This document shows, in pieces, positions 1,611-57,788 of a DNA stretch of 64,000 nucleotides. The DNA comes from Treponema sp. (lineage in GTDB: Bacteria > Spirochaetota > Spirochaetia > Treponematales > Breznakiellaceae), in NCBI GenBank assembly GCA_031279555.1, contig JAITIK010000005.1:1464-65463 (forward strand), written 5' to 3'. The translations under genes were made by a program, and so were the position numbers. Below the pieces are notes generated by a model. That model was not told the DNA's origin and made no database searches. It worked only from the letters and a program-made list of their open reading frames with translations. How positions within the stretch are numbered: position 1 is the stretch's first letter; every line of letters starts with the position of its first letter.

Positions 1611-1662
1611 AAAGCCTTTTTCAAAACGCGAACTACGTTCGGATCGGGTTTGGGAAAGGCCG
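1611..1662. repeat. Hairpin repeat family, copy 1
   Basis: GCCTTTTTCAAAACGCGAACTACGTTCGGATCGGGTTTGGGAAAGGC, in the divergent radC/pepF intergenic region. Confidence 0.8.
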
Positions 1663-1725
1663 CCACAGGCTTGTGAAAGCTTCCAGATACTAGGATTTTT
1701 TTTTATACTGTGCTAGACTTTTCTT

Positions 1726-3573
1726 ATGGATACTTTTAAAAATATGTTCATTGACGCAGCCAATGATGCATCTCCAGACGCGCTTCCCTCGTGGAACCTC
1801 GAAGCGATCTACCCATCGTTTGATTCGCCCGAATACAAGCGGGACATTGCCCTGCTTGAAAAACGCGCCGCTCTGCTGTTGGAGTCGCTCACAGACTCCC
1901 TGCCGTTTGACGCCGCTTCTGTAGTGCAAGCGATTCGCACATGGGAAGACGTTGCGGACACTGCGGAAAATCTGATGTCCTATACGGAAGCCGTCTACAC
2001 AACCGACACCCGCAACGGCAGGGCGCTCGCTGAAATAAATGCCGTTGAGGCGGCAAGGCTGCCGCTTGGCAAGGCTGAGGTCATCCTTCGGAACAAACTC
2101 GCTGAAATTGAAGATTGGGAGCGGTTGTTCCGCACGGACAAAGCCCTTGAACCTTACGAGTTTTTTATTGCCGAAGCTGTGCGCAAGGCTCATTTTCAAA
2201 TGGCGCCGGACATGGAAGACCTTGCCAACGATCTCGCGCGATCCGGCGCGGACGCATGGCAGCGCCTGCATGAGGCGGTTTCTTCCACCGCAGGCGCCGC
2301 GTACGGCGCGGTTGACGGCGCGTGGAAAACCGTCGCCCAACTGCGCGGCATGGCGGCGGACAATGACCGCTCGGTGCGGGAGAAGGCGTATAAAACGGAA
2401 CTGGAGGCGTGGCGGAGCGTTGAAATTCCGCTTGCCGCCGCGTTGAACGGGGTGAAAGGCGCGGCGATTGCCATGGACACGCGGCGGAACTGGCGCAACG
2501 CCGCAGGCGAATGCGAGCCCCTGCAAAAAGCGGCGTTTCAGTCGCGCATAAGCGAAAAAACGCTTTCTTCCCTCATCGCCGCCCTGGAATATGCCCTGCC
2601 GTTGTTCCGAAGGTATCTCACGATAAAGGCCGCTGCGCTCAAAATCCCGGTGTGCGCGTTCTACGATCTTTTTGCGCCTGTCGGCGAAAGGCGGCGGTGG
2701 ACGTTTGACGAGGCGTCCAAATTTATCGTGGGCCAATTTTCGGCTTTTGATCCGGCGATGGGCGCGTTCGCGCAAGCGGCTTTTGACGCGCATTGGATAG
2801 ACGCCGGTATACGGGAGGGCAAAGTAGGCGGCGCGTACTGCGCGGATTTCCCGCTTGCGGGAGTTTCCCGCATTCTCTGCAACTTTGACGGCTCTTTCGA
2901 CAGCGTGAGTACCGTGGCGCATGAACTTGGACATGCGTGGCACCATGACGTCATCAAGTCCCTGCCCCGTACGCAGTCGATGTATCCTATGACGCTCGCG
3001 GAAACCGCAAGCGTATTTGCTGAAACCATAATTTTTGAGGGCGCCTATACAAAAGCGGCGTCCAACGCGGAAAAACTGTTTTTAATAGAAGCGAATCTCA
3101 AGGACTGTTGTCAGGTCATTGTCGATATACTATCCCGCTTTTATTTTGAAAAGGCGCTGTTTGAACGGCGCGCCGCGTCGGAGCTTTCCCCTGAAGAACT
3201 ATGCGCTCTTATGATTGATGCGCAAAAGAAAACGTACGGCGGCGGACTTGATGAAAATCTATTGCATCCGTATATGTGGGCGGTGAAAAGCCACTATTAC
3301 AGCGCGGCGCTGGGGTTCTACAACTACCCTTATGCCTTTGGGCAGCTTTTTTCGCTTGGCTTGTACGCCGCGTACTCAGAAAACAAACAGGGCTTTGCGG
3401 AGAAATACAAGGCCATGCTTGCATTGACCGGCAGCGCAGCCGTCGAAGATGTCGCTCGTTCTATTGGTTGCGATATTGAAGGCGGAGCCTGTGAAGGCAA
3501 TGCCTTCTGGCGAAAAAGCCTGGATATATTGAAAAAAAGAGTTGACGAATTTGAAGAGCGCGCGCAATGCTGA
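1726..3573 (+). CDS. pepF: Oligoendopeptidase F family (M3B zinc metallopeptidase)
   Basis: 615-aa ORF with the HExxH zinc motif in VAHELGHAWHH. Length and overall composition are typical of PepF. Confidence 0.85.
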   Translation: MDTFKNMFIDAANDASPDALPSWNLEAIYPSFDSPEYKRDIALLEKRAALLLESLTDSLPFDAASVVQAIRTWEDVADTAENLMSYTEAVYTTDTRNGRALAEINAVEAARLPLGKAEVILRNKLAEIEDWERLFRTDKALEPYEFFIAEAVRKAHFQMAPDMEDLANDLARSGADAWQRLHEAVSSTAGAAYGAVDGAWKTVAQLRGMAADNDRSVREKAYKTELEAWRSVEIPLAAALNGVKGAAIAMDTRRNWRNAAGECEPLQKAAFQSRISEKTLSSLIAALEYALPLFRRYLTIKAAALKIPVCAFYDLFAPVGERRRWTFDEASKFIVGQFSAFDPAMGAFAQAAFDAHWIDAGIREGKVGGAYCADFPLAGVSRILCNFDGSFDSVSTVAHELGHAWHHDVIKSLPRTQSMYPMTLAETASVFAETIIFEGAYTKAASNAEKLFLIEANLKDCCQVIVDILSRFYFEKALFERRAASELSPEELCALMIDAQKKTYGGGLDENLLHPYMWAVKSHYYSAALGFYNYPYAFGQLFSLGLYAAYSENKQGFAEKYKAMLALTGSAAVEDVARSIGCDIEGGACEGNAFWRKSLDILKKRVDEFEERAQC

Positions 3574-3580
3574 AAATATG

Positions 3581-3735
3581 GAGCGTTTCCCCCAACGCGA
3601 ACTACGTTTGGGTTGGGGCGAACCTCCGGTTCGATGGGAAACGCTTTGGAAAAAGCGGGTGAAAGTCCGCTTTTTCTCCTTAAATCTAAGGCGGCTTTCC
3701 CAAAGCTGCCGTCCTGTACATTTTGGGAAAGTCTC
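3581..3735 (+). repeat. Hairpin repeat family, composite ~150-nt form, copy 2
   Basis: In order: GAGCGTTTCCCCCAACGCGAACTACGTTTGGG..GGGCGAACCTCCGGTTCGATGGGAAACGCT, a terminator-like hairpin AAAAAGCGG-GTGAAAGT-CCGCTTTTT, TCTCCTTAAATCTAAG, and a second hairpin CTTTCCCAAA..TTTGGGAAAG. It lies between pepF and gpsA. Confidence 0.85.
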
Positions 3736-3762
3736 TATAGAGAAATGAATTGGAGGAATAAT

Positions 3763-4830
3763 ATGAATGAACGTGCAGCGGTGTTAGGCGCGGGCGCGTG
3801 GGGAACCGCAGTTGCCAAGTCAATAGCTGACAAAGGCATTGATGTTGTTATTTGGGGGCTTGAAAGCGACGTAGTGGAAGACATAAATGAGCGGCGCATC
3901 AATTCGCGGTTCTTGCCCGATGTCGGTCTTCCCGAAACGTTGACGGCGACCACGGACCTGGCCGATGCCGCCGTCAACCGTGAATTTCTTATTTTGGCGT
4001 CGCCCTCTCTGTACCTTTTGGATACGGTGAAAAAAATTCTTACCCTCCCGTCAATTCGGGATGGGGAAACAACCATCGCCGTTATCACCAAGGGTTTTTT
4101 GGTAAGCCCCAAAGGTCCGCGGCTTATCCTTGAAATGCTGGAAGATTACCTTCCCGGTTTTTACCAGCATTCCCTTGTGTATATAGCGGGTCCGAGCCAC
4201 GCCGAGGAGGTGGGGCGCGGAAAGATCACGGGGCTTATCGCGGCGAGCGAAAACGCCAAGAATTCGATCCGTTTCAGGAATCTGCTCAAAAGCGAGCGGC
4301 TTTTGGTGTTTTCCTCCCTTGACGTCAAGGGCGTCCAAGTGGCGGCGGCGGCAAAGAACGTCATCGCCATAGCATTTGGTATGCTTGACGCGCTTAAAAC
4401 AGGCGTTGATGACGTTGAAAGCGAGATGTTTGGCGACGGCACCGCGTCTCTGCTCCTCGCCGCAGGCCTGAACGAGATACAGGCGCTTGGACATGCAATG
4501 GGATCGACCCATCCCGAAACCTTCACCTCAATTTCTGGCGTCGGCGACCTTGACGTCACCTGCCGTTCAGTCTGGGGACGGAACCGCAGATTCGGCCGGG
4601 AAATCATTGAAAAGCGTATTCTTGAGCGATTCAACGATTTAGACGATCTGATAAACCGCATCAAAGAGGTGGGATATCTGCCGGAAGGCGTCGCCGCCGC
4701 CAAACATATAAAAGTTTTAGCGGAAAAATACAGACTCAAGCTGCCGATAAGTCTGGGGATTCATCAAATTTTGAACAGGGAAATCGAACCTGCGGAATTC
4801 CTGAAAAATTTTTTGGACAGCTTGTCCTAG
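3763..4830 (+). CDS. gpsA: NAD(P)H-dependent glycerol-3-phosphate dehydrogenase
   Basis: The track ORF starts at 3613 inside a repeat element. ATG 3763 is preceded by GGAGG (3753-3757) and gives MNERAAVLGAGAWGTAVA (GxGxxG Rossmann), typical of GpsA. Confidence 0.9.
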   Translation: MNERAAVLGAGAWGTAVAKSIADKGIDVVIWGLESDVVEDINERRINSRFLPDVGLPETLTATTDLADAAVNREFLILASPSLYLLDTVKKILTLPSIRDGETTIAVITKGFLVSPKGPRLILEMLEDYLPGFYQHSLVYIAGPSHAEEVGRGKITGLIAASENAKNSIRFRNLLKSERLLVFSSLDVKGVQVAAAAKNVIAIAFGMLDALKTGVDDVESEMFGDGTASLLLAAGLNEIQALGHAMGSTHPETFTSISGVGDLDVTCRSVWGRNRRFGREIIEKRILERFNDLDDLINRIKEVGYLPEGVAAAKHIKVLAEKYRLKLPISLGIHQILNREIEPAEFLKNFLDSLS

Positions 4831-4878
4831 AACTTGTTCCATGTTTGCCCTAATCTTAAAAAAGAGGAAGCCGGGAAA

Positions 4879-8915: not shown

Positions 8916-9722
8916 TCATGGTTCTTCACGGATAAGCGCTTCCATGAAACCTGCCTGCCCGATCTTTTCGGCGACCGTTTGAACATCGTCAGCCTTTATC
9001 CCCGAAAGCACCACGCGGTACAAGTCGCCGCTCCGTTCATACACCGGACTCAAACCTACGCTTCTTAATTTTTCAAAAGCAGACACCGCGTTCTTGGGGA
9101 CTCTGAACGCGCCGATTTGCAGACGATACCGCTTGTTTGTTCCCGTGGGCGGAATGGCGGGCTTTATGACCGCTGGCTTTGTCGGTGCAACGGCTAGGGG
9201 CGGCGTTTGCGGAGCGGAGGGCGCGGGGACAGAGGGCGCGGCGACGGCTGCTGCGGACGGCGGCGTTTGCGGAACGGCCGACGCGGGGACAGGGGGCGCT
9301 ATTGCCGCAACCGGATCCCCCGTAGGTCCGGGAACTGCGCCCGCTTCGGCAATGGCAATGCTGACTGGAACGCTGCCACTTGTGATCATATCCAAGTGTT
9401 CGGCGGCGGCTTTTGACAGATCTATATTTCGATTAGAAATAAAGGGTCCCCTGTCGTTTACCCGCACTGTCACCTTTTTATTGTTGTTTTTATTCGTTAT
9501 GGTCAGCAACGTGCCAAAAGGCAACTCGGGATGAGCCGCAGTATAATCATTTGAATTAAAAGTTTCTCCAGAGGCGGTGGTTTGTCCATCAAATTCCGTT
9601 CCATACCATGAAGCGATCCCATCTTCCTGAAAGGTTGCCGCTTGCGCGTTGCACACGAGTGTAAAAACAAAGGCTTCTATAGTAATCAAAATAAACTTCT
9701 TCATATTTCTTTTATCGGTCAA
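8916..9722 (-). CDS. rlpA: RlpA-like double-psi beta-barrel lytic transglycosylase with C-terminal SPOR domain
   Basis: Signal peptide, then ASWYGTEFDGQTTASGETFNSNDYTAAHPELPFGTLLTITN..VRVNDRGPF (RlpA DPBB). A Pro/Ala-rich linker follows. The SPOR-like part is YRLQIGAFRVPKNAVSAFEKL..DLYRVVLSGI. Confidence 0.85.
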   Translation of the reverse strand: MTDKRNMKKFILITIEAFVFTLVCNAQAATFQEDGIASWYGTEFDGQTTASGETFNSNDYTAAHPELPFGTLLTITNKNNNKKVTVRVNDRGPFISNRNIDLSKAAAEHLDMITSGSVPVSIAIAEAGAVPGPTGDPVAAIAPPVPASAVPQTPPSAAAVAAPSVPAPSAPQTPPLAVAPTKPAVIKPAIPPTGTNKRYRLQIGAFRVPKNAVSAFEKLRSVGLSPVYERSGDLYRVVLSGIKADDVQTVAEKIGQAGFMEALIREEP

Positions 9723-9785
9723 TTATAAGAGAAAGATAAACCGGATGCGAAACTTTTACATGAGGAAATCGTCGTCGCTCCTGAA

Positions 9786-9811
9786 TTTTTTCGCAAAATT
9801 TTGCGAAAAAA
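9786..9811. promoter_or_regulatory. Perfect 26-nt palindrome TTTTTTCGCAAAATTTTGCGAAAAAA in the divergent rlpA-rex1 / rex2-adhE intergenic region
   Basis: Read directly from the sequence and exactly self-complementary. Its function as an operator is inferred only from position. Confidence 0.35.
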
Positions 9812-9822
9812 TCAAAAACCCA

Positions 9823-9874
9823 GAGGCTTTCCCAAAACTAACCCGAACGCAGTTCTCGTTTTGAGAAAAGCTCC
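9823..9874. repeat. Hairpin repeat family, copy 3 (inverted core)
   Basis: GAGGCTTTCCCAAAACTAACCCGAACGCAGTTCTCGTTTTGAGAAAAGCTCC. Confidence 0.75.
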
Positions 9875-9945: not shown

Positions 9946-10599
9946 GTGGCAAATTCCGAAGGTTCGGTATCTCTCGCCGTATTTAACAGACTGGCCTTGT
10001 ATGTGCGGCGGTTACGCGACATGAAAGCTGAAGGTTTTGTTACGGTATCGTCGGTCGCTTTGGCGGACGCCCTTTCGCTTAACCGGTCTTTGGTGAAGAA
10101 AGACATTTCGTGCGCTATCGTGAATGAAGGAAAACCCAAAGTCGGCTACAACATTGATGAACTTATTGAAGATATTGAAAGTTTTTTGGGCTACAACAAC
10201 ACAAAAGATGCGGTATTGGTGGGTGTGGGAAAGCTGGGGCAGGCGTTGATGGGGTACCGGGGTTTTGAGAAATACGGATTGAACATTATCGGAGGGTTTG
10301 ACATTGATGAAACCATAGTATCAAAAGAAATCAACGGGAAGAAAATTCTTCCAACCGGCAAATTGGAGAGCGCGGTGAAAAAGCTGAATATAAAAATAGC
10401 GATACTGACCACGCCCGGTGAACAAGCGCAAGCGATAACGGACATATTGGTAAAAGCGGGAATACGGGCTATATGGAATTTTACGCCGGCGCATATAAAA
10501 ACGCCAGATGATGTGGCGGTCAAGAACGAGGATATGGCAGTCTCACTCGCCGTATTATCACAACAGTTAAAGGAAATCCTAAAAAAGGAGTCAGAATGA
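9946..10599 (+). CDS. rex: Redox-sensing transcriptional repressor Rex (paralog 2)
   Basis: 217 aa with a GTG start after AAGGAGG. VFNRLALYVRRLRDM (wHTH), VGVGKLGQALMGY (GxGxxG), GIRAIWNFTP. The stop overlaps the adhE start (ATGA). Confidence 0.85.
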   Translation: MANSEGSVSLAVFNRLALYVRRLRDMKAEGFVTVSSVALADALSLNRSLVKKDISCAIVNEGKPKVGYNIDELIEDIESFLGYNNTKDAVLVGVGKLGQALMGYRGFEKYGLNIIGGFDIDETIVSKEINGKKILPTGKLESAVKKLNIKIAILTTPGEQAQAITDILVKAGIRAIWNFTPAHIKTPDDVAVKNEDMAVSLAVLSQQLKEILKKESE

Positions 10600-13205
10600 A
10601 GAAAGAAGAAAAAAACGATGGCGCCGAAAATTTGGCGCTCACTATCGAAAGGGTACGGAAGGCGCAAGCAATTTTCGCGGCCTATACCCAGAAACAGGTA
10701 GACAAGATTTTCTTTGAGGCTGCTCTGGCGGCCAATCGAGAGAGAATCCCGCTCGCAAAGCTGGCGGTGGAAGAAACCGGCATGGGCGTGGTGGAGGACA
10801 AGGTGATAAAAAACCATTACGCCGCCGAGTACATCTACAACGCCTATAAAAACACAAAAACAACCGGCGTCGTGGAGGAGGACGAGACCTATGGACTAAA
10901 GAAAATAGCTGAACCCATAGGGCTGATTTGCGCGGTCATTCCGACCACCAATCCTACGTCCACCACCATATTCAAGACTCTGCTGGCGTTGAAAACCCGA
11001 AACGGCATCGTAATCAGTCCGCACCCGAGGGCGAAGAATGCGACCGCGCAAGCTGCAAAAATCGTGCTGGAAGCGGCGGTCAAAGCTGGCGCTCCCGAAG
11101 GCATAATCGGCTGGATTGACGAACCGAGTCTTGAATTGACCAACACCCTTATGAGAGAAGCTGACATTATTCTTGCCACCGGCGGTCCGGGCATGGTGAA
11201 ATCCGCATATTCCAGCGGAAAACCGGCTTTGGGCGTGGGAGCGGGCAATACTCCCGCTCTTATTGACGACAGCGCGGACGTACTGCTTGCGGTGAACTCC
11301 ATCATCCATAGCAAGACCTTTGACAACGGCATGATCTGCGCGTCTGAGCAATCGGTGATTGTTCTTGATGCGATATACGACAAGGTTAAAGCTGAATTTC
11401 TTAAGCGCGGATGCTATTTTCTCAATCCTGAAGAAACGGAAAAGGTGCGAAAAACCATTATAATCAATGGATCGCTGAACGCGAGAATAGTCGGGCAAAA
11501 GGCGGCGAAAATCGCGGGATTAGCCGGAATAGCGGCGCCTGAATCCACTAAAATACTCATAGGCGAGGTGGAAAACGTGGATTTGAGCGAGGAATTCGCC
11601 CATGAAAAGTTAAGCCCCGTACTCGCCATGTACCGCGCGCCGAATTTTGAAGATGCCTTGCGAAAGGCCGAGCGCCTTATCGCAGACGGCGGCTACGGAC
11701 ACACCGCTTCTCTCTATATCAATCAGACCAGCGAGAAACAAAAGCTGTCCCAATTCGCCGCGAGAATGAAAACGTGCCGCATTTTGATAAACACGCCTTC
11801 TTCGCATGGAGGCATAGGCGATCTGTACAACTTCAAGCTTCCCCCGTCGCTTACGCTGGGCTGCGGCACCTGGGGCGGAAACAGCGTTGGCGAAAATGTA
11901 GGCGTCAAGCATTTGCTCAATATCAAGATCGTCGCTGAAAGGAGGGAAAATATGCTGTGGTTCAGAACGCCGCAGAAGGTGTATATCAAGAAGGGCTGTT
12001 TGCCTGTCGCTCTTGAGGAATTGAAGTCCGCGCTGGACAAGAAGAAAGCGTTTATAGTCACTGATTCTTTTCTCTATAATAATGGGTATACTACGTCTGT
12101 CGCGGATAAGCTGGACGCGCTGGGAATCGCCCATACGACATTCTTTAATGTGGCTCCTGACCCGACCTTGGCATGCGCGAAAGAAGGCGCCACTGCAATG
12201 AACGCCTTCAAACCGGACTGCATCATTGCCATAGGCGGCGGTTCGGCTATGGATGCGGCGAAGATCATGTGGGTTATGTATGAGCATCCCGATGTGGATT
12301 TCATGGAGCTTGCCATGCGGTTCATGGACATTAGAAAGCGGGTGTACCAGTTTCCGAAACAGGGGGAAAAGGCCTATTTTATCGCCGTGCCGACATCTGC
12401 AGGCACCGGCAGCGAAGTGACGCCCTTCGCCGTCATAACCGATGAAACAAGCGGCGTGAAATATCCCCTTGCCGATTACGAACTCATGCCGAATATGGCG
12501 ATAGTCGACGCGGACATGATGATGAACGCTCCCAAGGGTCTCACCGCGGCAAGCGGCATAGATGCGATAACACACGCGCTTGAAGCGTATGCGGCCATGC
12601 TTGCCACGGACTATACCGACGGGCTTGCGTTGCGAAGCCTTAAAATGATGTTTGAATATCTGCCGCGCGCGTATGACGACGGACAAAACGATCCGGTGGC
12701 CCGTGAGAAGACAGCCAACGCCGCTACGATGGCGGGCATGGCTTTTGCGAACGCCTTTCTTGGGGTGTGCCATTCTATGGCGCATAAACTGGGTTCTTTC
12801 CACCACCTGCCCCACGGCATCGCCAACGCGCTTATGATTGACGAGGTGTTGAGATTCAATGCGGCGGAAGTTCCTGTTAAAATGGGGACATTTCCCCAAT
12901 ACGATCATCCGCACACCTTGGCGCGGTACGCCGAGATTGCCGATTATCTTGGGATAAAGGGCGCAGACGACAACGAAAAGCTTGAAAATCTTATCCGCGC
13001 TGTCGACGCCCTGAAAGAACGGATTGGCATTAAGAAGACCATAAAAGAGTATGGAATTGATGAAAAAGATTTTCTCGACCGGCTTGACGCCATGACGGAG
13101 CAGGCTTTTGACGATCAATGCACGGGCGCAAACCCCCGCTATCCGCTTATGAGTGAGATCAAACAGATGTATCTCAACGCATACTACGGAAAAGACGGAA
13201 GATGA
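10596..13205 (+). CDS. adhE: Bifunctional acetaldehyde-CoA / alcohol dehydrogenase
   Basis: 869 aa. N-terminal aldehyde dehydrogenase domain (..ICASEQSVIV..) and C-terminal iron-type ADH domain (GGGSAMDAAK, HSMAHKLG). Classical AdhE length and architecture. Confidence 0.95.
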   Translation: MKKEEKNDGAENLALTIERVRKAQAIFAAYTQKQVDKIFFEAALAANRERIPLAKLAVEETGMGVVEDKVIKNHYAAEYIYNAYKNTKTTGVVEEDETYGLKKIAEPIGLICAVIPTTNPTSTTIFKTLLALKTRNGIVISPHPRAKNATAQAAKIVLEAAVKAGAPEGIIGWIDEPSLELTNTLMREADIILATGGPGMVKSAYSSGKPALGVGAGNTPALIDDSADVLLAVNSIIHSKTFDNGMICASEQSVIVLDAIYDKVKAEFLKRGCYFLNPEETEKVRKTIIINGSLNARIVGQKAAKIAGLAGIAAPESTKILIGEVENVDLSEEFAHEKLSPVLAMYRAPNFEDALRKAERLIADGGYGHTASLYINQTSEKQKLSQFAARMKTCRILINTPSSHGGIGDLYNFKLPPSLTLGCGTWGGNSVGENVGVKHLLNIKIVAERRENMLWFRTPQKVYIKKGCLPVALEELKSALDKKKAFIVTDSFLYNNGYTTSVADKLDALGIAHTTFFNVAPDPTLACAKEGATAMNAFKPDCIIAIGGGSAMDAAKIMWVMYEHPDVDFMELAMRFMDIRKRVYQFPKQGEKAYFIAVPTSAGTGSEVTPFAVITDETSGVKYPLADYELMPNMAIVDADMMMNAPKGLTAASGIDAITHALEAYAAMLATDYTDGLALRSLKMMFEYLPRAYDDGQNDPVAREKTANAATMAGMAFANAFLGVCHSMAHKLGSFHHLPHGIANALMIDEVLRFNAAEVPVKMGTFPQYDHPHTLARYAEIADYLGIKGADDNEKLENLIRAVDALKERIGIKKTIKEYGIDEKDFLDRLDAMTEQAFDDQCTGANPRYPLMSEIKQMYLNAYYGKDGR

Positions 13206-21039: not shown

Positions 21040-21265
21040 ATAAAAACCTCCATTTTTCTTTGGATCGATGTTCCAAAGACCGTAAAAATATATAAGTATG
21101 GCCACGCCATACCGCCAAGCCGTCCGCCATGTTGACGGACGGATAAAGCCGGGAGAAAAAGATAGAAAGCGGGTGGAAATATGCTCCGCCTCTTCGAATC
21201 GCCGGACGGCTTGCTTGTAGAGTGATCGCTATTTTTGGGAGCGTAAGAAATTAGTTTAAGATAAT

Positions 21266-21280
21266 GGGGGGGGGGGGGGG
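21266..21280. repeat. Homopolymeric G15 tract (C15 on the minus strand)
   Basis: Counted directly: 5 G at 21266-21270 plus 10 G at 21271-21280. Confidence 0.95.
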
Positions 21281-21380
21281 TAATCCGCCAATGGCGGCGG
21301 CGCGGCTATTCAAATAGTACGTCTTTTTCATTTTTCGCTTACGCGTCTCCTTTTGAAAGGTTTTATGTTAATTAAAAATA

Positions 21381-21467
21381 TTATATCATTCTCATACGAT
21401 TGTCAAGCATGTTCTTTTCAAGATTTCTCAAAAAAAGAACCGTCCCTAAAAGCAAAAACGTCTTCAT
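21381..21467 (-). pseudogene. Truncated paralog remnant (RBS, start and signal-peptide start) of the 20563-21039 gene
   Basis: About 55 nt (21425-21480) are nearly identical to 21005-21060. The remnant translates MKTFLLLGTVLF (versus MKKLLLLGTVLF) and then diverges, stopping after 28 codons. Confidence 0.5.
21390..21416 (-). promoter_or_regulatory. Strong sigma70-type promoter candidate (extended -10)
   Basis: The minus strand reads TTGACA-atcgtatgagaa-TGATATAAT. The -35 is perfect, the extended -10 is TGnTATAAT, and the hexamer spacing is short at 15 nt. Confidence 0.5.
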
Positions 21468-21651
21468 ATAAAATCTCCATAACACTTGTTTTATGACGCT
21501 CTTTATCAGTGTCAAAAGTATATCTCTATTTTTTGAAACCGTCAACTCCTTTTTTCAAATTTTTTCGACAGCAACTTGAACTTTAAACAGCATTCTTGCC
21601 TTCTGGCGTCAGGGAGCGCGCGGAGGTGTTTTTATTTTTCTTAGCCGGTGA

Positions 21652-22495: not shown

Positions 22496-22538
22496 TATGA
22501 GGCTGTTTCAAAACCTCATGTTTTAAAACAGCCTCATA
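22496..22538. repeat. Hairpin repeat family, copy 4 (arms only)
   Basis: TATGAGGCTGTTTCAAAACCTCATGTTTTAAAACAGCCTCATA, a near-perfect palindrome. Confidence 0.7.
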
Positions 22539-40576: not shown

Positions 40577-41629
40577 GTGGCAAAAGTAATGGATACAGGA
40601 TCCGAGTACACCGGGAAGAAAAAAAGCGATAAAACCTTCAATGGAAGGCAGAAAGCCGCCATTTTCTTGGTCACTATAGGCTCGGAAATTTCCGCCGAAA
40701 TATTCAAATACCTCAGAGAAGATGAAATTGAGACGCTTACGTTTGAAATCGCCCGTCTTGAAACCATAGATCCGGATCAAAAAGATGCCATCTTGCAGGA
40801 ATTCCAGGAACTGATGATGGCGAATCAGTTCATTTCTACCGGCGGCATTGACTATGCGCGAGAACTCCTCGAAAAAGCCTTGGGAAGCCAGAAAGCTGTT
40901 GATATCATCAACAGGCTGACATCAAGTTTGCAAGTGCGCCCCTTTGACTTCATCAGGCGCACGGATCCGGCTCACCTTCTGAATTTCATTCAACAGGAAC
41001 ATCCCCAGACTATCGCCCTTATCCTTGCGTACCTTGAACCGAACAAAGCGTCCGTTATTCTGCAAAATCTGCCGCACGAAGTGCAAAGCGATGTGGCGCG
41101 GCGTATCGCGACCATGGATCGCACTAGCCCGGAAGTGTTGCGCGAGGTTGAGCGGGTGCTTGAGAAAAAGCTCTCCACCCTGTCAAGCGAAGACTACACT
41201 GCGGCGGGCGGCGTTCCGAGCATCGTTGAAATCCTCAACCTTGTTGACCGCGCATCTGAGAAGCAGATAATCGAATCTCTTGAAGATGAAGATCCGGAGC
41301 TTGCCGAAGAAATCAAGAAGCGCATGTTTGTGTTCGAAGATATTGTCATGCTTGACGATAAAGCGATTCAGAAGGTTATGCGCGAAGTTGACGGGCAGGA
41401 ACTGGCAAAGGCGCTCAAGTCCGTTGACCAAGAGGTTCAGGACAAAATATTCAGAAACATGAGCAAGCGCGCCGCCGGTATGCTCAAAGAAGATATGGAA
41501 TTCATGGGGCCTGTACGCCTGAAAGACGTTGAAGAAGCCCAGCAGAAGATCGTGTCAATCATTAGAAAGCTTGAAGATTCCGGTGAAATCGTGGTTGCCC
41601 GCGCCGGCGAAGACGAACTGGTTGTGTAA
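40577..41629 (+). CDS. fliG: Flagellar motor switch protein FliG
   Basis: 350 aa: ..GRQKAAIFLVTIGSEISAEIFKYLREDEIE..EVQSDVARRIATMDRTSPE..MFVFEDIVMLDD.. Confidence 0.95.
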   Translation: MAKVMDTGSEYTGKKKSDKTFNGRQKAAIFLVTIGSEISAEIFKYLREDEIETLTFEIARLETIDPDQKDAILQEFQELMMANQFISTGGIDYARELLEKALGSQKAVDIINRLTSSLQVRPFDFIRRTDPAHLLNFIQQEHPQTIALILAYLEPNKASVILQNLPHEVQSDVARRIATMDRTSPEVLREVERVLEKKLSTLSSEDYTAAGGVPSIVEILNLVDRASEKQIIESLEDEDPELAEEIKKRMFVFEDIVMLDDKAIQKVMREVDGQELAKALKSVDQEVQDKIFRNMSKRAAGMLKEDMEFMGPVRLKDVEEAQQKIVSIIRKLEDSGEIVVARAGEDELVV

Positions 41630-41643: not shown

Positions 41644-41757
41644 GAGTCTTTCCCCAAACGCGAACTATGTTCGGGCTGGTTTTGAGAAAGACTTTTGGAA
41701 AGAACGGCAAAAAAACCGTTTCTTCCATTAAATCTAAGGCAACTCTCTTATGAGAGA
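41644..41757 (+). repeat. Hairpin repeat family, composite (shorter) form, copy 11, inside the flagellar operon
   Basis: In order: GAGTCTTTCCCCAAACGCGAACTATGTTCGGGCTGGTTTTGAGAAAGACT, hairpin GGAAAGAACGG-CAAAAAAA-CCGTTTCTTCC, then ATTAAATCTAAG. It fills the fliG-fliH spacer. Confidence 0.85.
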
Positions 41758-41759: not shown

Positions 41760-42818
41760 ATGAGATGCGAAGGAATGCCTTTCGCGGCGCGTGGCGAAAG
41801 GTTTCTCTATCGCATGCGTTTAATTTTATGTGACAAGAGGTTGATCTTGACAAAAGCAGTTTTTAGGCAGAATGAACTCATTACGAATCAAGAGACGATC
41901 TTGCTTGAACCTCCTCATGCGTTTCCTGAATTGGCGCACCTTGCTGTATCTAAAGAAGCGGAAAAGGACGAAGACGAGAAAAATGAAGTCTACGATGGTC
42001 CAACCGTAGAAGATCTGAGAAGAGAAGCTGAGTCGTTTAAGGCGCAGTGGGAAATTGAAAAAGAAGCCCTTGTTATCTCCGCCAAAAACGACGCCGCCAC
42101 TATCGTAAAAGAAGCGAAAGAAACCGCCTTTCAAGAAGTAAAACGAAAAACCGAAGAAGCTCAAATCTTAAAACGGCAAGCGGAAGACGAAGCCGAACGC
42201 ATTATTGCGGAAGCGAAAGAAAAAGCTAAACAGATAGAAGACGAAGCTCGCATGGCGTACGAGAATCAAAAAAAAGAGGCGAATGATACGGGCTTTCGAA
42301 CCGGCAGGGAAGAAGGGTACAACTCCGGCAAAGCTGAAGTCGAGCGCTTGATCCAGCGGACGCAAACAGTGCTTAAACGGGCTCAGGATAAACGGGGTGA
42401 AATTCTCGCGGAAAGCGAGCGACAGATTGTGGATTTAGTGTTGCTCATCGCCCGCAAAGTGATAAAAGTGATCTCAGAATCCCAAAAAACCGTGGTTGTC
42501 TCCAATGTGGTGCAGGCGTTGCGCAAGCTCAAGAACCGGGGCGCTGTCATCATCCGCGTCAATATGGCTGATGTAAAGCTCACCACCGAGCATATCAAAG
42601 ACTTTATCCGTCTGGCCGAAGGCGCCGCTTCCATACAGGTGCAGGAAGATTCTTCCGTTGACGCGGGCGGTTGCATCATCGAAACCGACTTCGGTGAAAT
42701 TGACGCCCGCATTTCAAGCCAGCTTGCCGAATTGGAAAGCAAGATATTGGAAATGTCGCCGATAAAAACCACGCCAAAATCGCCGCCGCCAGCAAGCGCG
42801 GCAACCGCGCGGAAATGA
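41760..42818 (+). CDS. fliH: Flagellar assembly protein FliH (start uncertain)
   Basis: Lys/Glu-rich coiled-coil middle and a C-terminal FliH/YscL-like domain (IVDLVLLIARKVIK..GGCIIETDFGEIDARISSQL). The 5' end of the track ORF abuts a repeat element. An in-frame TTG at 41847 follows AAGAGG. Confidence 0.7.
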   Translation: MRCEGMPFAARGERFLYRMRLILCDKRLILTKAVFRQNELITNQETILLEPPHAFPELAHLAVSKEAEKDEDEKNEVYDGPTVEDLRREAESFKAQWEIEKEALVISAKNDAATIVKEAKETAFQEVKRKTEEAQILKRQAEDEAERIIAEAKEKAKQIEDEARMAYENQKKEANDTGFRTGREEGYNSGKAEVERLIQRTQTVLKRAQDKRGEILAESERQIVDLVLLIARKVIKVISESQKTVVVSNVVQALRKLKNRGAVIIRVNMADVKLTTEHIKDFIRLAEGAASIQVQEDSSVDAGGCIIETDFGEIDARISSQLAELESKILEMSPIKTTPKSPPPASAATARK

Positions 42819-44269: not shown

Positions 44270-46552
44270 TTAGGACATATCAGATACGCGCAAAATTTCC
44301 TTGCGGATAGTCGCAGTCGCCTCCACCATGTTTCTTAACGCGGGCTTCACTTCTTCCCAGTTTCTTGTTTTTAGGCCGCAATCAGGATTGACCCACATTT
44401 TCTTTTTATCGAGCGTTTCAAGCCGCGCCATAATTTGTTCCCGAAATTCGGCGACCGATGGCGCTCGCGGTGAATGAATGTCATATACACCGGGTCCTAT
44501 TTCGTTTTGATACGCGGTTTCTTTAAAAACCTTCAGGAGCTTGTTGCCGCTGCGGGCGGTTTCAATGGTAAGCGCGTCGGCGTCCATGGCCTCAATGGTT
44601 TTTATAATGCCGTTAAAATCGCTGTAACACATGTGGGTATGTATCTGGGTTGGCATATCCGCGGCGCTTACCGCAAGCCGGAAGGCTTCCAGCGCCCATT
44701 GTTCGTATTCACCGATATTTTCTTTCCGCAAGGGATACCCCTCCCGAAACGCCGCCTCATCAACCTGGATTATGGTAACGCCAGCTTTCTGCAAATCGGC
44801 GACTTCATCGCTCAGGGCAAGGGCTATCTGCCGCGCCACCTCTGCCCGCGTGATATCGTTCCTGACAAAAGACCAGTTAAGGATGGTGACGGGACCGGTC
44901 AACATGCCTTTCATAGGTTTCTTTGTTTTGCTTTGAGCGTAGCTTATCCATTTCACTGTCATAGGCTCCGGGCGGCTGACATCGCCGAAAATAACCGGCG
45001 GCTTGACGCAACGGGAACCGTAGCTTTGAACCCATCCGTTTTTGGTAAAATGAAATCCCTCCAGAAGTTCGCCAAAATATTCCACCATGTCATTCCGTTC
45101 CGGCTCTCCGTGGACTAAAACGTCAAGCCCAACTTCCTCCTGAAACGCGACACAGTGGTCAATATACTTTTTTATCTCAATTTCATAGCCGGCGCTTGAT
45201 ATGACGCCTTTTCGGTAGTCACTCCTTGCTTTTCGTAACGCCGGAGTCTGGGGGAAACTCCCGATAGTGGTGGTCGGCAGCACGGGAAGATTCAGCCGCT
45301 CTTTTTGAAGGACGCTCCGTTCCGCATACGTTCCCTTTCGGGATGTTCTGGAGAGCTTCGCCAGCCTGTCCTCCACCCTATTGTTTTTTATCAGCCCTGA
45401 ATTGGGATCGGACAACAAATTTCCCTTGCTTTCTTCAATCAAAGATTTTTCCGTTTCAGAAAGGCTGTCAGAAGAAAACAACCTTGCCAAGAGAGAAACC
45501 TCTTCCACTTTCTCGCAGGCAAAAGCCAGATATTTCTTGATTGCGCTCTCCGGCTCGTTTTTCAGCGAGTAGGGGCTATGCAAAAGGGAACAACTGGTCG
45601 AAACAATGATCTGTTCTTTGGGAATCGCCTTGTTTATCCGTTCAAGCATCTCCAGACTTGCGCATAGATCGTTGCGCCAAATATTCCGCCCGTCTACAAC
45701 GCCGGTTATAATATATTTGGAAGCGGCGCATTCCAATCCTTCAAAATTGCGTTTCCCGTACAGGAAATCAAGGCCGACGCCCCAAATTGGAGTGTCACAA
45801 AGCAGCTTTGTCGCCTCCGTCGAATGTTCAAAATAACTTGTTACGATAATTTTTATCCTGCCGCTCGCCGAAGCCAGTTCCCTGTAGGTCGCCTGAATCA
45901 GCGGGAGCATCGCGTCAGAAGGATTTTTGACAAACGCCGGCTCGTCGAATTGCACATACACGAATTCATCCAGTTTTGCTATTTCCTCCAGCAATCGCTT
46001 ATAAACCGGCGTTATTTTATGCAGATATTTGAAGGAATCGCCTCCGTCTTTTGTTTTCGAAAGAGCCAGGAATGTCAAAGGGCCAATAATGTTGATTTTT
46101 GTCCTTACCCCTATATCCCGCGCTTCCCGGTATTCGGACGTTACCTTCGCCGGATCAAGCTGAAAAACCATGTCATCACTCAATTCTGGCACGATAAAGT
46201 GGTAATTGGTATTAAACCATTTGGTCATTTCCATGGCGGCGGCCTTGCCATTTCCCCGGGCCATGGCAAAGTACCGTTCGTTTTTATCCGCTATTCCGGC
46301 GAATCGTTCAGGGACGGCATTGAGCATTGCCATAGTGTCAAGCATATTGTCATAAAAGCTAAAGTCATTGGAACTGATAAAATCAATGCCCGCGTCTTTC
46401 TGCAAACGCCAATATTTTTTCCGCAATACCCGCGCGGCGGCTTCGACTTCATCAAAAGAAACCTTATGCGCCCAATAATTCTCCAAAGCTTTTTTGAGTT
46501 CCCTGTTTTCCCCTATCCGGGGAAACCCGTTAATCAGTGTTTTTATAGTCAT
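44270..46552 (-). CDS. metE: Cobalamin-independent methionine synthase
   Basis: 760 aa with two Meth_synt domains. NGFPRIGENRELKKALE is near the N-terminus. The C-terminal zinc ligands lie in HTHMCYSDF and WVNPDCGLKTR. Confidence 0.95.
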   Translation of the reverse strand: MTIKTLINGFPRIGENRELKKALENYWAHKVSFDEVEAAARVLRKKYWRLQKDAGIDFISSNDFSFYDNMLDTMAMLNAVPERFAGIADKNERYFAMARGNGKAAAMEMTKWFNTNYHFIVPELSDDMVFQLDPAKVTSEYREARDIGVRTKINIIGPLTFLALSKTKDGGDSFKYLHKITPVYKRLLEEIAKLDEFVYVQFDEPAFVKNPSDAMLPLIQATYRELASASGRIKIIVTSYFEHSTEATKLLCDTPIWGVGLDFLYGKRNFEGLECAASKYIITGVVDGRNIWRNDLCASLEMLERINKAIPKEQIIVSTSCSLLHSPYSLKNEPESAIKKYLAFACEKVEEVSLLARLFSSDSLSETEKSLIEESKGNLLSDPNSGLIKNNRVEDRLAKLSRTSRKGTYAERSVLQKERLNLPVLPTTTIGSFPQTPALRKARSDYRKGVISSAGYEIEIKKYIDHCVAFQEEVGLDVLVHGEPERNDMVEYFGELLEGFHFTKNGWVQSYGSRCVKPPVIFGDVSRPEPMTVKWISYAQSKTKKPMKGMLTGPVTILNWSFVRNDITRAEVARQIALALSDEVADLQKAGVTIIQVDEAAFREGYPLRKENIGEYEQWALEAFRLAVSAADMPTQIHTHMCYSDFNGIIKTIEAMDADALTIETARSGNKLLKVFKETAYQNEIGPGVYDIHSPRAPSVAEFREQIMARLETLDKKKMWVNPDCGLKTRNWEEVKPALRNMVEATATIRKEILRVSDMS

Positions 46553-46689: not shown

Positions 46690-46925
46690 GGAACATTCCC
46701 ACCTGGGAATATCCTGTATACCAAAGTCTCCTGGCTTGCGGGTGGAAAGGCGGCCCGGCTGCGAGAATTCGCGGCGTTTTTGACAGCCACTCCCATTCCG
46801 TCAGTCTTCCCGGCCTTTTTTGGGGGCCAGTGGCTGTTGTGACGGAATCAACCCGGTTACAGTTACGGGATAGCGGAGGATTCGCCGGACTACGTACGTC
46901 CGACCTCACTTCCTTTGAAATATAC
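46690..46925 (-). ncRNA. Cobalamin (B12) riboswitch in the metE leader
   Basis: The minus-strand leader contains GGAAGUGAGGUC..CCGGCGAAUCCUCCGCUAUCCCGUAACUGUAACC..CCACUGGCCC..GGCCGGGAAG..AAGCCAGGAGACUUUGG. The last block is the B12 box (forward coordinates 46725-46739). The blocks occur in the order and wording of the cobalamin riboswitch consensus as I remember it. Confidence 0.7.
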
Positions 46926-46931
46926 AGTCAA

Positions 46932-46961
46932 ATTATAGTGTTTCATGGGGGAGACAGTCAA
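46932..46961 (-). promoter_or_regulatory. Sigma70-type promoter of the metE leader
   Basis: The minus strand reads TTGACT (46961-46956), an 18-nt spacer, then TATAAT (46937-46932), immediately upstream of the riboswitch. Confidence 0.55.
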
Positions 46962-47146: not shown

Positions 47147-47213
47147 GAGGCTTCTTTAAAATTAATCCAAACTTACATTCGGCGAACGTAAGTTCGTGTT
47201 TTGAAAAAGGCTT
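47147..47213. repeat. Hairpin repeat family, copy 12 (degenerate)
   Basis: GAGGCTTCTTTAAAA..CATTCGGCGAACGTAAGTTCGTGTTTTGAAAAAGGCTT. The core is recognisable but the arms are weak. Confidence 0.5.
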
Positions 47214-47646: not shown

Positions 47647-47681
47647 GCGCAGGCAATGCCGGGCATTGCCTGCGCTTTTTT
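47647..47681 (+). terminator. Rho-independent terminator between convergent genes
   Basis: GCGCAGGCAATGC-CGG-GCATTGCCTGCGC (13-bp perfect stem) followed by TTTTTT. Confidence 0.8.
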
Positions 47682-48840
47682 AATGTCCAAGACACTCGTC
47701 TATAATAGATTTCAACGTATTCTCATTCACCTTCACAATCTCCGACTCGCGCGCGACGCTTTCAGGCGAATCTGAAGCGTGGGCGGTGTTCACCATGACG
47801 TTGCTGCCGAATTCGCGGCGAACCGTACCGCCCGGCGCTTTCAGCGGATCCGTGGGTCCAAGCACATCGCGGATTTTCTTAACCGCGTCAATACCCTCGT
47901 AAATGAGGATCATGCACTTGACCGACTTGCATTCGTCCACAGGAGCGCCCGGCTTCACGCCCGACATAAAGCCTACAATCTGGGCGAACTGATCATAGGC
48001 GTATTCGACGCCGAACGTCTCGACAAGGGCTTTCTCCGTACGTTCGCTCAAGGCGAGGAAAAATTCCTTTTCAAGCGTCTCTTTAGCCTTCTTCCCTAAA
48101 ACGGGCGCGAGCTTGCTTTTCAACGCCGCTTCGACCGGACCGTAAAAATCAAGCGCCTGTTCAAGCGTGAATCGGTGAATTTTTATGCCGATGATCCTGA
48201 GACCTGTCCGTGAAAACATATCGATGATGCTCCCCGGACGGGATGAGGCGTACTGCCAATTGTCGGGCTTTATGATGACCAAGGTGCGCTCTATTTTTGA
48301 AGGATCATCGTATTCCATATTGTTGACGATGTTCTCTTTGCCATCCAAATAGCTTGAAAACAGGGCGAGATCTCTGTCCGCCCACTTCTGCTCGCGCGGC
48401 GTCATGACCGCAGGCTCAAAATAGTTGACTTGCGCCGTATCGGGGTCTATAATCAGGTCCGCGTAGGTGTCGCGTATGGTTTCTCCGGTAAGCGATTCAT
48501 CGCCTATGTGTTCGGGGAAAATATGTCCGCATATCTTCGCCAGCTTTTCGCAGGGATTCTCCCCTTTAAATAAAAGCAAAAGCGTACGGTGCTTTCTGCC
48601 GCCCGAAGGGACGAGCCGCGCCTCAGCGTAATCCGCAAGAAGCGTAACGCTGTCTGACGACACGTTTTGCGCGCACAATATCGCCGAGTATTCTTTCGCA
48701 AACGCCTCGTCGGGCGCAAACATCTGGGCGCCTACAAGTTCAAGATCAACTTGCGACAAAAGCCGCGCCAACACACCGCCGGTTCTGCTTTTTGCGACCG
48801 TGTACGGCGTCACCATGACATACGATAATGATTCCGGCAT
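47680..48840 (-). CDS. Tandem nucleoside-diphosphate-kinase-like protein
   Basis: It has two NDK-like halves. The N-terminal half reads YVMVTPYTVAKSRTGGVLARLL. The second half reads ERTLVIIKPDNWQYASSRPGSIIDMF..GTVRREFGSNVMVNTAHASDS. Confidence 0.75.
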   Translation of the reverse strand: MPESLSYVMVTPYTVAKSRTGGVLARLLSQVDLELVGAQMFAPDEAFAKEYSAILCAQNVSSDSVTLLADYAEARLVPSGGRKHRTLLLLFKGENPCEKLAKICGHIFPEHIGDESLTGETIRDTYADLIIDPDTAQVNYFEPAVMTPREQKWADRDLALFSSYLDGKENIVNNMEYDDPSKIERTLVIIKPDNWQYASSRPGSIIDMFSRTGLRIIGIKIHRFTLEQALDFYGPVEAALKSKLAPVLGKKAKETLEKEFFLALSERTEKALVETFGVEYAYDQFAQIVGFMSGVKPGAPVDECKSVKCMILIYEGIDAVKKIRDVLGPTDPLKAPGGTVRREFGSNVMVNTAHASDSPESVARESEIVKVNENTLKSIIDECLGH

Positions 48841-56975: not shown

Positions 56976-57022
56976 CATGTGAAATATTGTGCAAACAGCA
57001 TATTTCCGCACACAACACAGGG

Positions 57023-57607
57023 CTATAACTCCTCGAAACCGCCGTCAATATCCAACATGTCAGGGATTACGTAGGCTATACCGCCGGTCTTTTTCACCCG
57101 CATCTCGACATAACCCTTGGAAACCATGTCGTCAAGTTCTTTTTTAGCCTGATCCAAGGATATGCCTGCGGATAAAGCTACATCTCCCGGAGACAAAATG
57201 CCGTGGTTCTGTTTCGCCGCCTTCAGAATGGCATGTTCAACGCTGTCCACCCGCCTGGCATTTCTGGAGGAATGCCTCGCGCCAAAAACGCCGTCTACAA
57301 ATCCGCCAGCATAGGCCGCCTCGCGGCGTCTGTCGTTTACGAAACGGCTGCCTAAACGCCTCCCCTCTTCATACGCATCCAGAGACGCGCTGTTCCTATA
57401 GCCGTCTAACAGCGCCCGTTCCATATTAGCCTTCCGCACCTGTCCGCCTAATGTAAAAAAATCGTAAATGGAACCCACCATACATAGGCCGCCGGTGAAC
57501 ATCCACAAGAGGCCGCTGGGTATCTTTCCCAAATAAAAACGGTGCAATCCCAATGCGCCGCAACCTGAAATCAGCCATAAAAGGTATGCGATGCCCACGC
57601 TATACAT
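57023..57607 (-). CDS. TM2-domain membrane protein with C-terminal winged-helix-like domain
   Basis: N-terminal TM2 domain: YLLWLISGCGALGLHRFYLGKIPSGLLWMFTGGLCMVGSIYDF. The soluble C-terminal half is helical. Confidence 0.8.
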   Translation of the reverse strand: MYSVGIAYLLWLISGCGALGLHRFYLGKIPSGLLWMFTGGLCMVGSIYDFFTLGGQVRKANMERALLDGYRNSASLDAYEEGRRLGSRFVNDRRREAAYAGGFVDGVFGARHSSRNARRVDSVEHAILKAAKQNHGILSPGDVALSAGISLDQAKKELDDMVSKGYVEMRVKKTGGIAYVIPDMLDIDGGFEEL

Positions 57608-57640
57608 AAAGCCCTCTCCAAAAAAAAATTCTTTTATAAG

Positions 57641-57673
57641 GCGGTTCCAAAACTGGAGTTTTGGCCGCTTTTT
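57641..57673. repeat. Hairpin repeat family, mini copy 13
   Basis: GCGGTTCCAAAACTGGAGTTTTGGCCGC followed by TTTTT. Confidence 0.55.
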
Positions 57674-57728
57674 ACCCGTGGAGAAAATCGCGCAAGCTAT
57701 AAGCGCTTAATTTATAAAGAATTATCAA

Positions 57729-57788
57729 TTTTCTCCTAAAGCCTGTTCCAAAACGCGAACTTGCGTTCGGGTTTTGGAACAGGCTTTC
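57729..57788. repeat. Hairpin repeat family, copy 14 (best hairpin)
   Basis: TTTTCTCCTAAAGCCTGTTCCAAAACGCGAACTTGCGTTCGGGTTTTGGAACAGGCTTTC. The two 22-nt arms differ at one position. Confidence 0.85.

Follow-up and report, generated by a model that had tools for sequence, protein, structure and literature searches.

Among described bacterial repeats, the Correia elements of Neisseria (CREE) measure 100-155 bp and have 26-bp ends and a TA duplication. In Streptococcus pneumoniae, BOX elements consist of modules of 45-59 bp without clear inverted-repeat ends or a duplication, and the RUP element is 107 bp long, has an IS630-type link and duplicates TA. In repetitive extragenic palindromic (REP) sequences one of the two ends of the palindrome is marked by a conserved tetranucleotide, GTAG or CGTC (PMC3733652). 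The genomes of Spirochaetes (Leptospira, Sediminispirochaeta, Treponema) combine low coding density with an average of ~145 conserved MITEs (miniature inverted-repeat transposable elements), according to a census of such elements (PMC11602168). Here we describe a family of hairpin-forming intergenic repeats in a 64,000-nt stretch of the genome of a Treponema sp. (contig JAITIK010000005.1; the whole stretch is called the window below), which had been noticed in an earlier reading made from the letters of the window (the sequence-only reading). These hairpins probably belong to a hitherto undescribed family of tiny non-coding MITEs, multiplied in termite-gut spirochaetes and inserted by a DDE-type transposase. 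The sequence-only reading did not recognise them among described spirochaete repeats, and our search of the literature, by name and by sequence string, likewise found no description of the family. It may be among the conserved MITEs of the census, the available text of which contains no sequence or description of it (PMC11602168).

Results

Detection of the Hairpins and Their Anatomy

The sequence-only reading had counted at least 14 copies in 64 kb, all of them intergenic and lying in both orientations. A covariance model of the 17-bp outer stem (R1; the 16-nt end plus one flanking pair) was built from an alignment of 70 copies, 58 from other genomes and 12 from the window, and with filters off it gave 14 distinct sites in the window at E<0.01, namely 1609, 3688, 9820, 22496, 22558, 23601, 31589, 33848, 33974, 35112, 41641, 47144, 57635 and 57736. 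The sites at 47144 and 57635 were found though absent from the training alignment, the other 12 being members of it. Two more hairpins, B (3581-3651) and P (22650-22714), are too divergent for R1 and bring the window total to 14-16; we count them as copies because both occupy the third-hairpin position of a composite that is common to other genomes. All copies lie between genes, at a density of about one per 4 kb, and both orientations occur. A matrix scanner, run independently, picked up 12 copies in the window and nothing in either 1.75 Mb of unrelated metagenomic and viral loci or 10 Markov shuffles of the window. Most window copies fold far better than shuffled sequence (z -4.5 to -11.5); the decayed copies D and M fold no better (z about -1.3). 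For the best copy (57729-57788), described earlier as having 22-nt arms with one mismatch, an inverted-repeat scan gives 23-nt arms at 57738-57760 and 57765-57787 that are 96% complementary, and the four arm pairs quoted in the sequence-only reading are all present: GAGCGTTTCCC/GGGAAACGCT in B, AGCCATTCCC/GGGAATGGCT in G, GCCTGTTCC/GGAACAGGC in O and AGTCTTTC/GAAAGACT in L.

All arms are variants of one 16-nt end, GAGGCTGTTCCAAAAC / GTTTTGGAACAGCCTC. The 70-copy alignment has the consensus TGAGGCTGTTCCAAAAC...GTTTTGGAACAGCCTC, with the terminal form TGAGGC... / ...GCCTCA, and the outer arm common to every window copy, once the candidates are put in one orientation, is roughly tGAGGCTkTyCCAAAAC plus its complement. 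Pairing of the ends covers exactly 16 positions, in that it stops 7 positions outside TTCCAAAAC and is at chance at positions 8-10. With the two ends only 4-70 nt apart, every copy is therefore a long hairpin-forming palindrome.

What lies between the arms is variable and modular. About nine window copies have a type-1 interior, a GCGAAC-TAY-GTTCGG mini-hairpin followed by a 4-nt bulge (GTTAG-like), four (C, F, H and J) have a type-2 interior that is GCGCCCTATTAGGATGTCAGC-like, and two (E and N) have only a short loop of 4-6 nt. The core CAAAACGCGAAC-TAY-GTTCGGGTTTTGG that the sequence-only reading took to be shared by all copies does exist, but only ~9 copies carry it and it is one of several interchangeable interiors; an exact-pattern count of this core under-detects the family, with 8 matches when one mismatch is allowed. 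Across the family the interiors include a 5-7-nt loop, a CCGGTTAG loop and one or two CGAAC-N3-GTTCG mini-hairpins followed by GGTTAG, among others. The long-form hairpins hold one or two of these CGAAC-N3-GTTCG modules, and in other genomes most copies are short, with the 16-nt arms set around a CTTCAG(T) loop or the CCGGTTAG loop.

Hairpins also occur in pairs. The gaps from one hairpin to the next are non-random, with sharp peaks at 40-44 nt and 64-65 nt, and they define doublets of roughly 120-170 nt beside the singles, which are palindromes of 38-70 nt. Doublets of type A (~41-nt spacer) consist of hairpin 1, a linker CCTTAGATTTAGG, a central hairpin GGAAAAACCGG-loop-CCGGTTTTTCC and hairpin 3, and those of type B (~65-nt spacer) have TACCCCTGGAGAAAATTGC...GCAATTTTCTCCA in place of the linker and central hairpin. 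The doublet spacer holds a conserved central hairpin of 10-12 bp. Two type A doublets and one of type B are found in the window (Table 1), so that several of the copies that had been listed as units are halves of larger composites (C+B, F+P and N+O).

Flanking Duplications and the Target Site

With the element boundaries set at GAGG..CCTC, the 4-mers flanking the element on its two sides agree fully in 16 of 28 doublets, where shuffles give a mean of 0.87 and a maximum of 5, and in 24 of 121 singles, where they give a mean of 1.5 and a maximum of 5; three of the four bases match in 3 more doublets and 16 more singles. Flanking 5-mers or 6-mers gave no matches in the same 28 doublets and 121 singles. 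Controls at the inner boundaries of the doublets were at chance (1/28, and 4/28 for the central 2 nt), and controls with shifted boundaries likewise. The duplicated words are direct and not reverse complements (ATTT three times; AATA, AATC, AGGT, ACTT and AAGT twice each; also AATT). In the reconstructed target, position -1 is A in 75% of cases and position +1 is T in 67%, giving an AT-rich, roughly symmetric A-N-N-T. When 17-nt arms are assumed, the two bases outside are identical in 20 of 28 doublets versus 3.3 expected; because the target logo shows A at -1 and T at +1, we place the true boundaries one base further in, with a repeat of 4 bp. Within the window the duplication is perfect for copy J, and three of the four bases match for K, E, D, composite 1 and composite B.

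Where 16-bp inverted-repeat ends adjoin a near-symmetric target that is directly duplicated over 4 bp, the footprint is that of a staggered-cutting transposase. The family has three of the properties by which MITEs are recognised, namely 16-nt terminal inverted repeats, a flanking 4-bp duplication and small (38-170 bp), non-coding, multicopy and dispersed units. One orthologous site gives an apparent filled/empty pair. In another genome (locus L021) the DNA that separates gpsA from the gene next to it includes a family element of 67 nt with CTTA on one side and TTTA on the other; at this spot the window has a single CTTA (4855-4858) with an adjoining 22-nt indel. A further locus (L088) has a composite upstream of recA and the window has none there; the flanks of this pair are not alignable.

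Complementarity of the Arms

The sequence-only reading had argued that arms which differ between copies while staying complementary point to selection on, or propagation through, a hairpin. The outer stem was examined in copies that had been detected from the inner 9+9 nt alone, and in it positions 1-7 pair and 8-10 do not. The pair swaps are real: three outer positions switch Watson-Crick pairs (G-C/T-A, C-G/T-A and G-C/C-G, the last 66 vs 35). The support that they lend to the argument is weaker than claimed, in that mixed, mismatched combinations make up 30 of 131 copies (23%) at the G-C/C-G position and pairing of the outer stem, at 0.66 vs 0.44 for the shuffle null, is only moderately in excess. 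The two arms of a copy, being the inverted-repeat termini of a single element, are bound to be complementary, and the complementary differences between copies fit subfamilies whose two ends changed together and do not demonstrate selection on an RNA helix.

Distribution among Genomes and Genomic Setting

A collection with one genome per species was scanned with the pattern TGTTCCAAAA-N(6-36)-TTTTGGAACA, which matched at least 120 loci. Among the matches listed, 92 of 120 loci belong to Treponema or Spirochaetaceae genomes assembled from termite guts, and the remaining 28 are scattered single chance matches with no family copies beyond the seeds. The 92 termite-gut loci (642 kb) hold ~167 copies; R1 and the scanner give ~165 sites, ~70 of them beyond those that seeded the loci. 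Since these 642 kb are rich in sites and the 28 unrelated loci are empty beyond their seeds, the family is a common feature of termite-gut treponemes and not of the window alone. By its own terms the sequence-only reading would have been refuted by a lack of enrichment outside the window, and the enrichment there is strong. Individual genomes have private sequence variants (L009/L088, L096/L118, L018/L114 with 100% identity over 79 nt, and window composites 1 and 2), which indicates amplification within lineages. Across many genomes the 16-nt arm is conserved, as is even the CTTCAG loop. Contigs of other genomes often end inside a composite (L018, L050, L064, L083, L111 and L118), as expected where a repeat is longer than the assembler k-mer.

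A metagenome scan with AccA for close orthologous loci gave a best match of 71% identity, on short contigs without family copies, and a scan of viral contigs for the end sequence gave chance single matches only and no hairpins. One viral contig with an end-like word three times at 36-nt spacing (L226:9996-10083) proved to be an unrelated coding tandem repeat (…CCTGAGCCTGTTCCAAAACTTGAGCCTGCTCAAAAG…). The pattern scan of the genome collection also caught a different conserved palindrome, ATATATGTTCCAAAAA(C)ATCATA(T)AATGA(W)ATCATTTTTGGAACATATAT, in three Lachnospiraceae/Eubacteriaceae genomes (L029:1018-1056, L035:2918-2956 and L075:3937-3976), which seems to be a repeat family of its own. One genome, Spirochaetaceae Nc350_bin98, has longer elements (180-300 nt; at L023:4423-4605 and L114:182-483 and in L004, L033, L034, L057 and L066) with ends of the same type, AGAGCCTGTTCAAAATC...GTTTTGAAACAGGCTC, and a G-rich interior common to the copies; on the two of these that were checked by eye a perfect 4-bp duplication was not seen.

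Crude open reading frames (ORFs) cover 87% of the DNA and 70% of the copies lie outside them. Almost all the others are within 250 nt of the start of an ORF that is over-extended, or within a short ORF that is spurious, and genuine copies inside genes are essentially absent. The 80 copies whose context could be classified lie between tandem genes in 49 cases, convergent genes in 16 and divergent genes in 15 (5, 3 and 3 in the window), which is about the distribution of random insertion into intergenic DNA and not terminator-like. The orientation of short-loop copies relative to transcription of the flanking genes is 12 same / 11 opposite and there is no overall bias; for long-form copies in tandem contexts the split is 7 same / 0 opposite, in a small sample with heuristic orientation calls. 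The neighbouring genes are unrelated, and only common ABC-transporter families recur.

Origin of the Family and Rival Explanations

The sequence-only reading had proposed a REP/BIME-like element (BIME, bacterial interspersed mosaic element), a MITE or a target of a REP-associated transposase (RAYT) as possible identities. The 4-bp duplications and the symmetric A-N-N-T target favour the MITE, and the duplications together with the lack of a GTAG/CGTC tag oppose the other two. As a MITE, the family is of an ordinary type with an unusually compact build, and it is notable for having two 16-bp ends around a loop and for the doublet architecture. In the mechanism that we propose, a DDE-type transposase would bind the 16-bp ends, make 4-bp staggered cuts and insert the element, the enzyme itself being encoded elsewhere in the genome or perhaps lost. 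The doublet would probably be the main transposing unit, and many singles may be deletion derivatives that arose by recombination between the directly repeated arms of a doublet, whereby the duplication would be kept.

Several observations count against a MITE. A perfect duplication is found in only 20% of singles, with a further 13% matching at three of four bases, and the sole filled/empty comparison has the 22-nt indel beside it. Direct transposition of the singles is doubtful, because a double-stranded element of 38 bp is very short for a synaptic complex. Neither the window nor the 642 kb of related loci yielded an autonomous element or a transposase with family ends, no matching duplication was present at any of 154 long-range end pairs, and the ORFs between solo ends (L095, L034) encode a binding protein and a helix-turn-helix protein and no transposase. 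The central hairpin of type A doublets, with copies folded separately, retains 10-11 bp in all 19 copies examined, although both sides of its stem have changed in at least three lineages (ACCGG/CCGGT to AGCGG/CCGCT; A-T to T-A in L036 and to G-C in L093; L009 and L088 were also examined), and a purely selfish element does not obviously need this conserved pairing. Such a model also leaves unexplained a strand asymmetry in the first hairpin of the composites, where a mismatch is conserved as G.T (34 copies) or A.C (15 copies).

If kept for function rather than spread by transposition, the hairpins might be selected structural elements of RNA or DNA, such as a terminator, an insulator, an mRNA-stabilising or processing hairpin or a site for a nucleoid or regulatory protein. 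Their stability (hairpin O in Table 1 is an example), the conservation of the 16-nt arm and CTTCAG loop over many genomes and the orientation of the long forms in tandem contexts are all consistent with this, as is the constancy of the central hairpin, whose form A5-CCGG-loop-CCGG-T5 resembles a weak bidirectional terminator. However, no T-tract follows the family hairpins and a terminator scan of 20.5-36 kb flags no outer hairpin, 19% of the classified copies lie between divergent genes, and the short-loop copies are unbiased in orientation. A dimeric duplex-binding site is ruled out by the spread in arm spacing, 4 to 70 nt. The hairpins match no Rfam family: with Rfam 15 only the cobalamin riboswitch passes the gathering threshold in the whole window, and permissive scans of two composite regions returned only generic microRNA-precursor hairpin matches far below threshold. 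Function alone would also leave the 4-bp duplications and the genome-specific variants unexplained, and we consider it unlikely as the origin of the family; after insertion the hairpins may be put to a secondary use. A variant of the transposon reading, which we regard as rather unlikely, has the family as more than a selfish MITE: singles of 38-55 bp would themselves be mobile by way of a folded intermediate, single-stranded or cruciform, and would then be the smallest known transposable units, and/or the doublet would deliver a selected central hairpin, held by compensatory changes in all lineages examined, as a bidirectional terminator or insulator domesticated between genes by termite-gut treponemes.

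It is very unlikely that the hairpins are REP/BIME-type elements, short extragenic palindromes that are commonly grouped in alternating orientation and are excised and moved in the form of single-stranded hairpins by a RAYT, a single-copy tyrosine transposase encoded elsewhere, even though their size, palindromic form, high copy number and extragenic location fit, the fixed-spacer doublets resemble BIMEs or REPINs, and the G.T/A.C mismatch makes the strands unequal as expected for a single-strand substrate. Target-site duplications of 4 bp flank the units here, and single-strand Y1 chemistry of the IS200/IS605 and RAYT type is not known to make them. Neither GTAG nor CGTC is present at the consensus ends, and copies in divergent promoter regions, which E. 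coli REPs avoid, are as common as chance predicts. The sequence-only reading had also suggested a search for a mobilising RAYT or IS200-like gene, and tblastn of the window and the 642 kb with IS608 TnpA, E. coli RAYT and IS200 yielded no credible RAYT/IS200/Y1 coding sequence, a weak negative with approximate queries (best E 0.04, for a match in L097 with a stop codon). That the arms are paired DNA-uptake sequences, a competence signal placed in inverted pairs downstream of genes as in Neisseria, is hardly credible: a conserved word of ~16 nt is found across a bacterial family and often in inverted pairs, as this would predict, but arms seldom stand alone and those that do are mostly decayed hairpins, genes contain essentially no copies whereas uptake sequences are common in coding DNA, and the flanking duplications would be unexplained. 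Integron attC sites and CRISPR repeats were rejected, since there are no arrays or cassettes and the AAC/GTT motifs stand at the inner and not the outer stem ends.

Copies in the Window

The gene content of the window is spirochaetal (RecA, FliG/FliH/FliI, MetE with a cobalamin riboswitch, and AccA), and the individual copies are listed in Table 1. The overlap of hairpin B with the ORF 3613-4830 is only apparent, this ORF being over-extended, because its Pfam match begins at residue 56 and a GGAGGA-ATG start lies near 3766. In front of copy I, on the + strand, stands ...GATTTTCTCC, which is left over from the type-B spacer, and copy L is also present in a 99.9%-identical contig of another assembly.

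Table 1. Hairpin copies, composites and an apparent empty target site in the window (coordinates are window positions; linkers are given with their composite)
Feature	Position	Strand	Form	Flanking 4-mers	R1 score	Fold	Setting or remark
Copy A	1612-1662	+	single, type-1 interior GCGAAC-TAC-GTTCGG + ATCG		33.4 bits, E 1e-7		between divergent radC-like (797-1531, -) and pepF-like (1726-3573, +) genes
Composite 1	3581-3735	-	type A doublet, linker CCTTAGATTTAAGG	TATG, TATA			fills pepF-gpsA spacer
Hairpin B (composite 1)	3581-3651		two inner CGAAC-N3-GTTCG mini-hairpins			-22.5 kcal/mol, z -4.6
Central hairpin (composite 1)	~3655-3684		AGAAAAAGCGG..CCGCTTTTTCC
Hairpin C (composite 1)	3691-3735				38.9 bits
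Apparent empty target site CTTA	4855-4858	.					between gpsA and next gene
Copy D	9823-9873	-	single, type-1 interior, decayed	CCCA, CCTA	38.2 bits	z -1.4	between divergent rlpA-like (8916-9722, -) and rex-like (9946-10599, +) genes
Copy E	22499-22535	.	short single, 16-nt arms, 5-nt loop	CTAT, ATAT	49.4 bits	z -9.4
Composite 2	22561-22714	+	type A doublet, linker ACTCAGATTTAAGAG
Hairpin F (composite 2)	22561-22605				35.9 bits
Central hairpin (composite 2)	22618-22647		GAGAAAAACGGGC..GCCGTTTTTCCC
Hairpin P (composite 2)	22650-22714						recognised by alignment with B, not by R1
Copy G	23604-23654	-	single, type-1 interior		40.6 bits	z -6.2	between convergent genes 22882-23433 (+) and 23658-24338 (-)
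Copy H	31592-31641	+	single, type-2 interior, right arm decayed		34.8 bits		between divergent genes 30745-31455 (-) and response regulator 31697-32413 (+)
Copy I	33851-33902	-	type-1 interior		51.6 bits		downstream of histidine kinase gene 32410-33810
Copy J	33977-34028	-	single, type-2 interior	AAGT, AAGT (perfect)	54.3 bits	z -6.7	downstream of accA (34154-35098, -)
Copy K	35115-35165	+	single, type-1 interior with GGTTAG bulge	AAGT, ACGT	47.9 bits		between amylase-like gene (35225-36634, -) and accA (-)
Copy L	41644-41694	+	single, type-1 interior		41.0 bits	z -4.5	within flagellar operon, between fliG (40577-41629) and fliH (41760-42818)
Copy M	47147-47213	-	single, two inner mini-hairpins, outer arms decayed		19.1 bits, E 0.002	z -1.3	between NDK-domain gene (47680-48840, -) and cobalamin riboswitch of metE; outside training set
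Composite B	57638-57786	+	type B doublet, spacer TTACCCGTGGAGAAAATCGC...TCAATTTTCTCC	TTAT, TCAT			between divergent genes 57023-57607 (-) and 730-aa ORF (+)
Hairpin N (composite B)	57638-57668		degenerate, short		20.6 bits		outside training set
Hairpin O (composite B)	57739-57786		best copy		46.4 bits	-26.4 kcal/mol, z -11.5

Some other features of the window lie close to family copies. The cobalamin riboswitch (46705-46958, minus strand; 58.6 bits vs a gathering score of 31.5) stands upstream of metE, which encodes the cobalamin-independent methionine synthase (44270-46552, minus strand), and copy M lies just upstream of the riboswitch. At 9782-9815 a 34-nt A/T-rich near-perfect palindrome, TGAATTTTTTCGCAAAATTTTGCGAAAAAATCAA, adjoins copy D upstream of the gene for a Rex-like repressor (9946-10599); this palindrome does not belong to the family (R1 E 0.011) and might serve as an operator or as a bidirectional terminator. 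Both copy E and composite 2 lie in a region of ~1.7 kb (21106-22880) that has no convincing gene, is AT-rich (GC content 0.435 in the 20-24 kb bin) and has many promoter-like matches. The ORFs at 10596-13205 (+) and 24335-26944 (-), both of 869 aa, were considered as an inverted duplication and proved unrelated (BLASTP E 0.85). Two Logan contigs (L298 and L299, from SRR14710901) are 99.92% identical to the window over 3843 nt, which places the same strain in that run. In exact protein look-ups, the metE and response-regulator products were not on record, and these look-ups turned up no variant strain in which the presence of copies could be compared.

Discussion

The family makes up an appreciable part of the intergenic DNA in a group of ecological importance that is difficult to culture, and it fragments metagenome assemblies at its copies. 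Insertions lie beside ribosome-binding sites, in a flagellar operon (fliG-fliH) and next to a riboswitch, and may therefore alter expression. The consensus, the covariance model and the 4-bp duplication rule can be used for repeat masking and annotation, as a strain-typing and lineage marker for termite-gut Treponema and as a handle on the transposase. The family also carries a warning, in that long intergenic hairpins with seemingly compensated arms can be transposon ends and not structured RNAs.

The hairpins resemble the Correia elements, MITEs of small size and without coding sequence that have terminal inverted repeats, a short duplication of the target and no identified active transposase, that number hundreds of intergenic copies and form hairpins in transcripts, and whose subtypes are distinguished by internal segments. 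They differ from Correia elements in their 16-bp GAGG... ends, their 4-bp A-N-N-T-like duplication, their size of down to 38 bp, the doublet of two palindromes around a central hairpin, and the phylum in which they occur. With BOX they have in common a modular intergenic repeat in which variable internal modules stand between conserved ends (boxB there; 0, 1 or 2 CGAAC-N3-GTTCG mini-hairpins here), whereas BOX is larger and has no clear inverted-repeat ends, and RUP duplicates TA and not 4 bp.

The IS5 family of insertion sequences (IS5, IS427 and IS1031 groups) combines GAG or GA/G ends, inverted repeats of ~16 bp and duplications of 2-4 bp at short symmetric targets, and GAG ends with a 4-bp duplication, as in the hairpins, would be typical of it. 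Unlike IS5-family elements, the hairpins come with no transposase gene or full-length element bearing the family ends that we could find in the window or the 642 kb, and we treat derivation from IS5 as a lead and not a result. They are set apart from REP, BIME and REPIN elements by the untagged ends, the 4-bp duplication and the failure to see a RAYT in the window and the 642 kb, REPs being associated with a RAYT gene that the palindromes typically flank. Even so, they are like these systems in being short, imperfect, extragenic, high-copy palindromes with lineage-specific subfamilies (PMC2817692, PMC3116915, PMC3733652), and the likeness to REPINs extends to doublets of fixed spacing, which are possibly the replicating unit, with the singles as their remnants.

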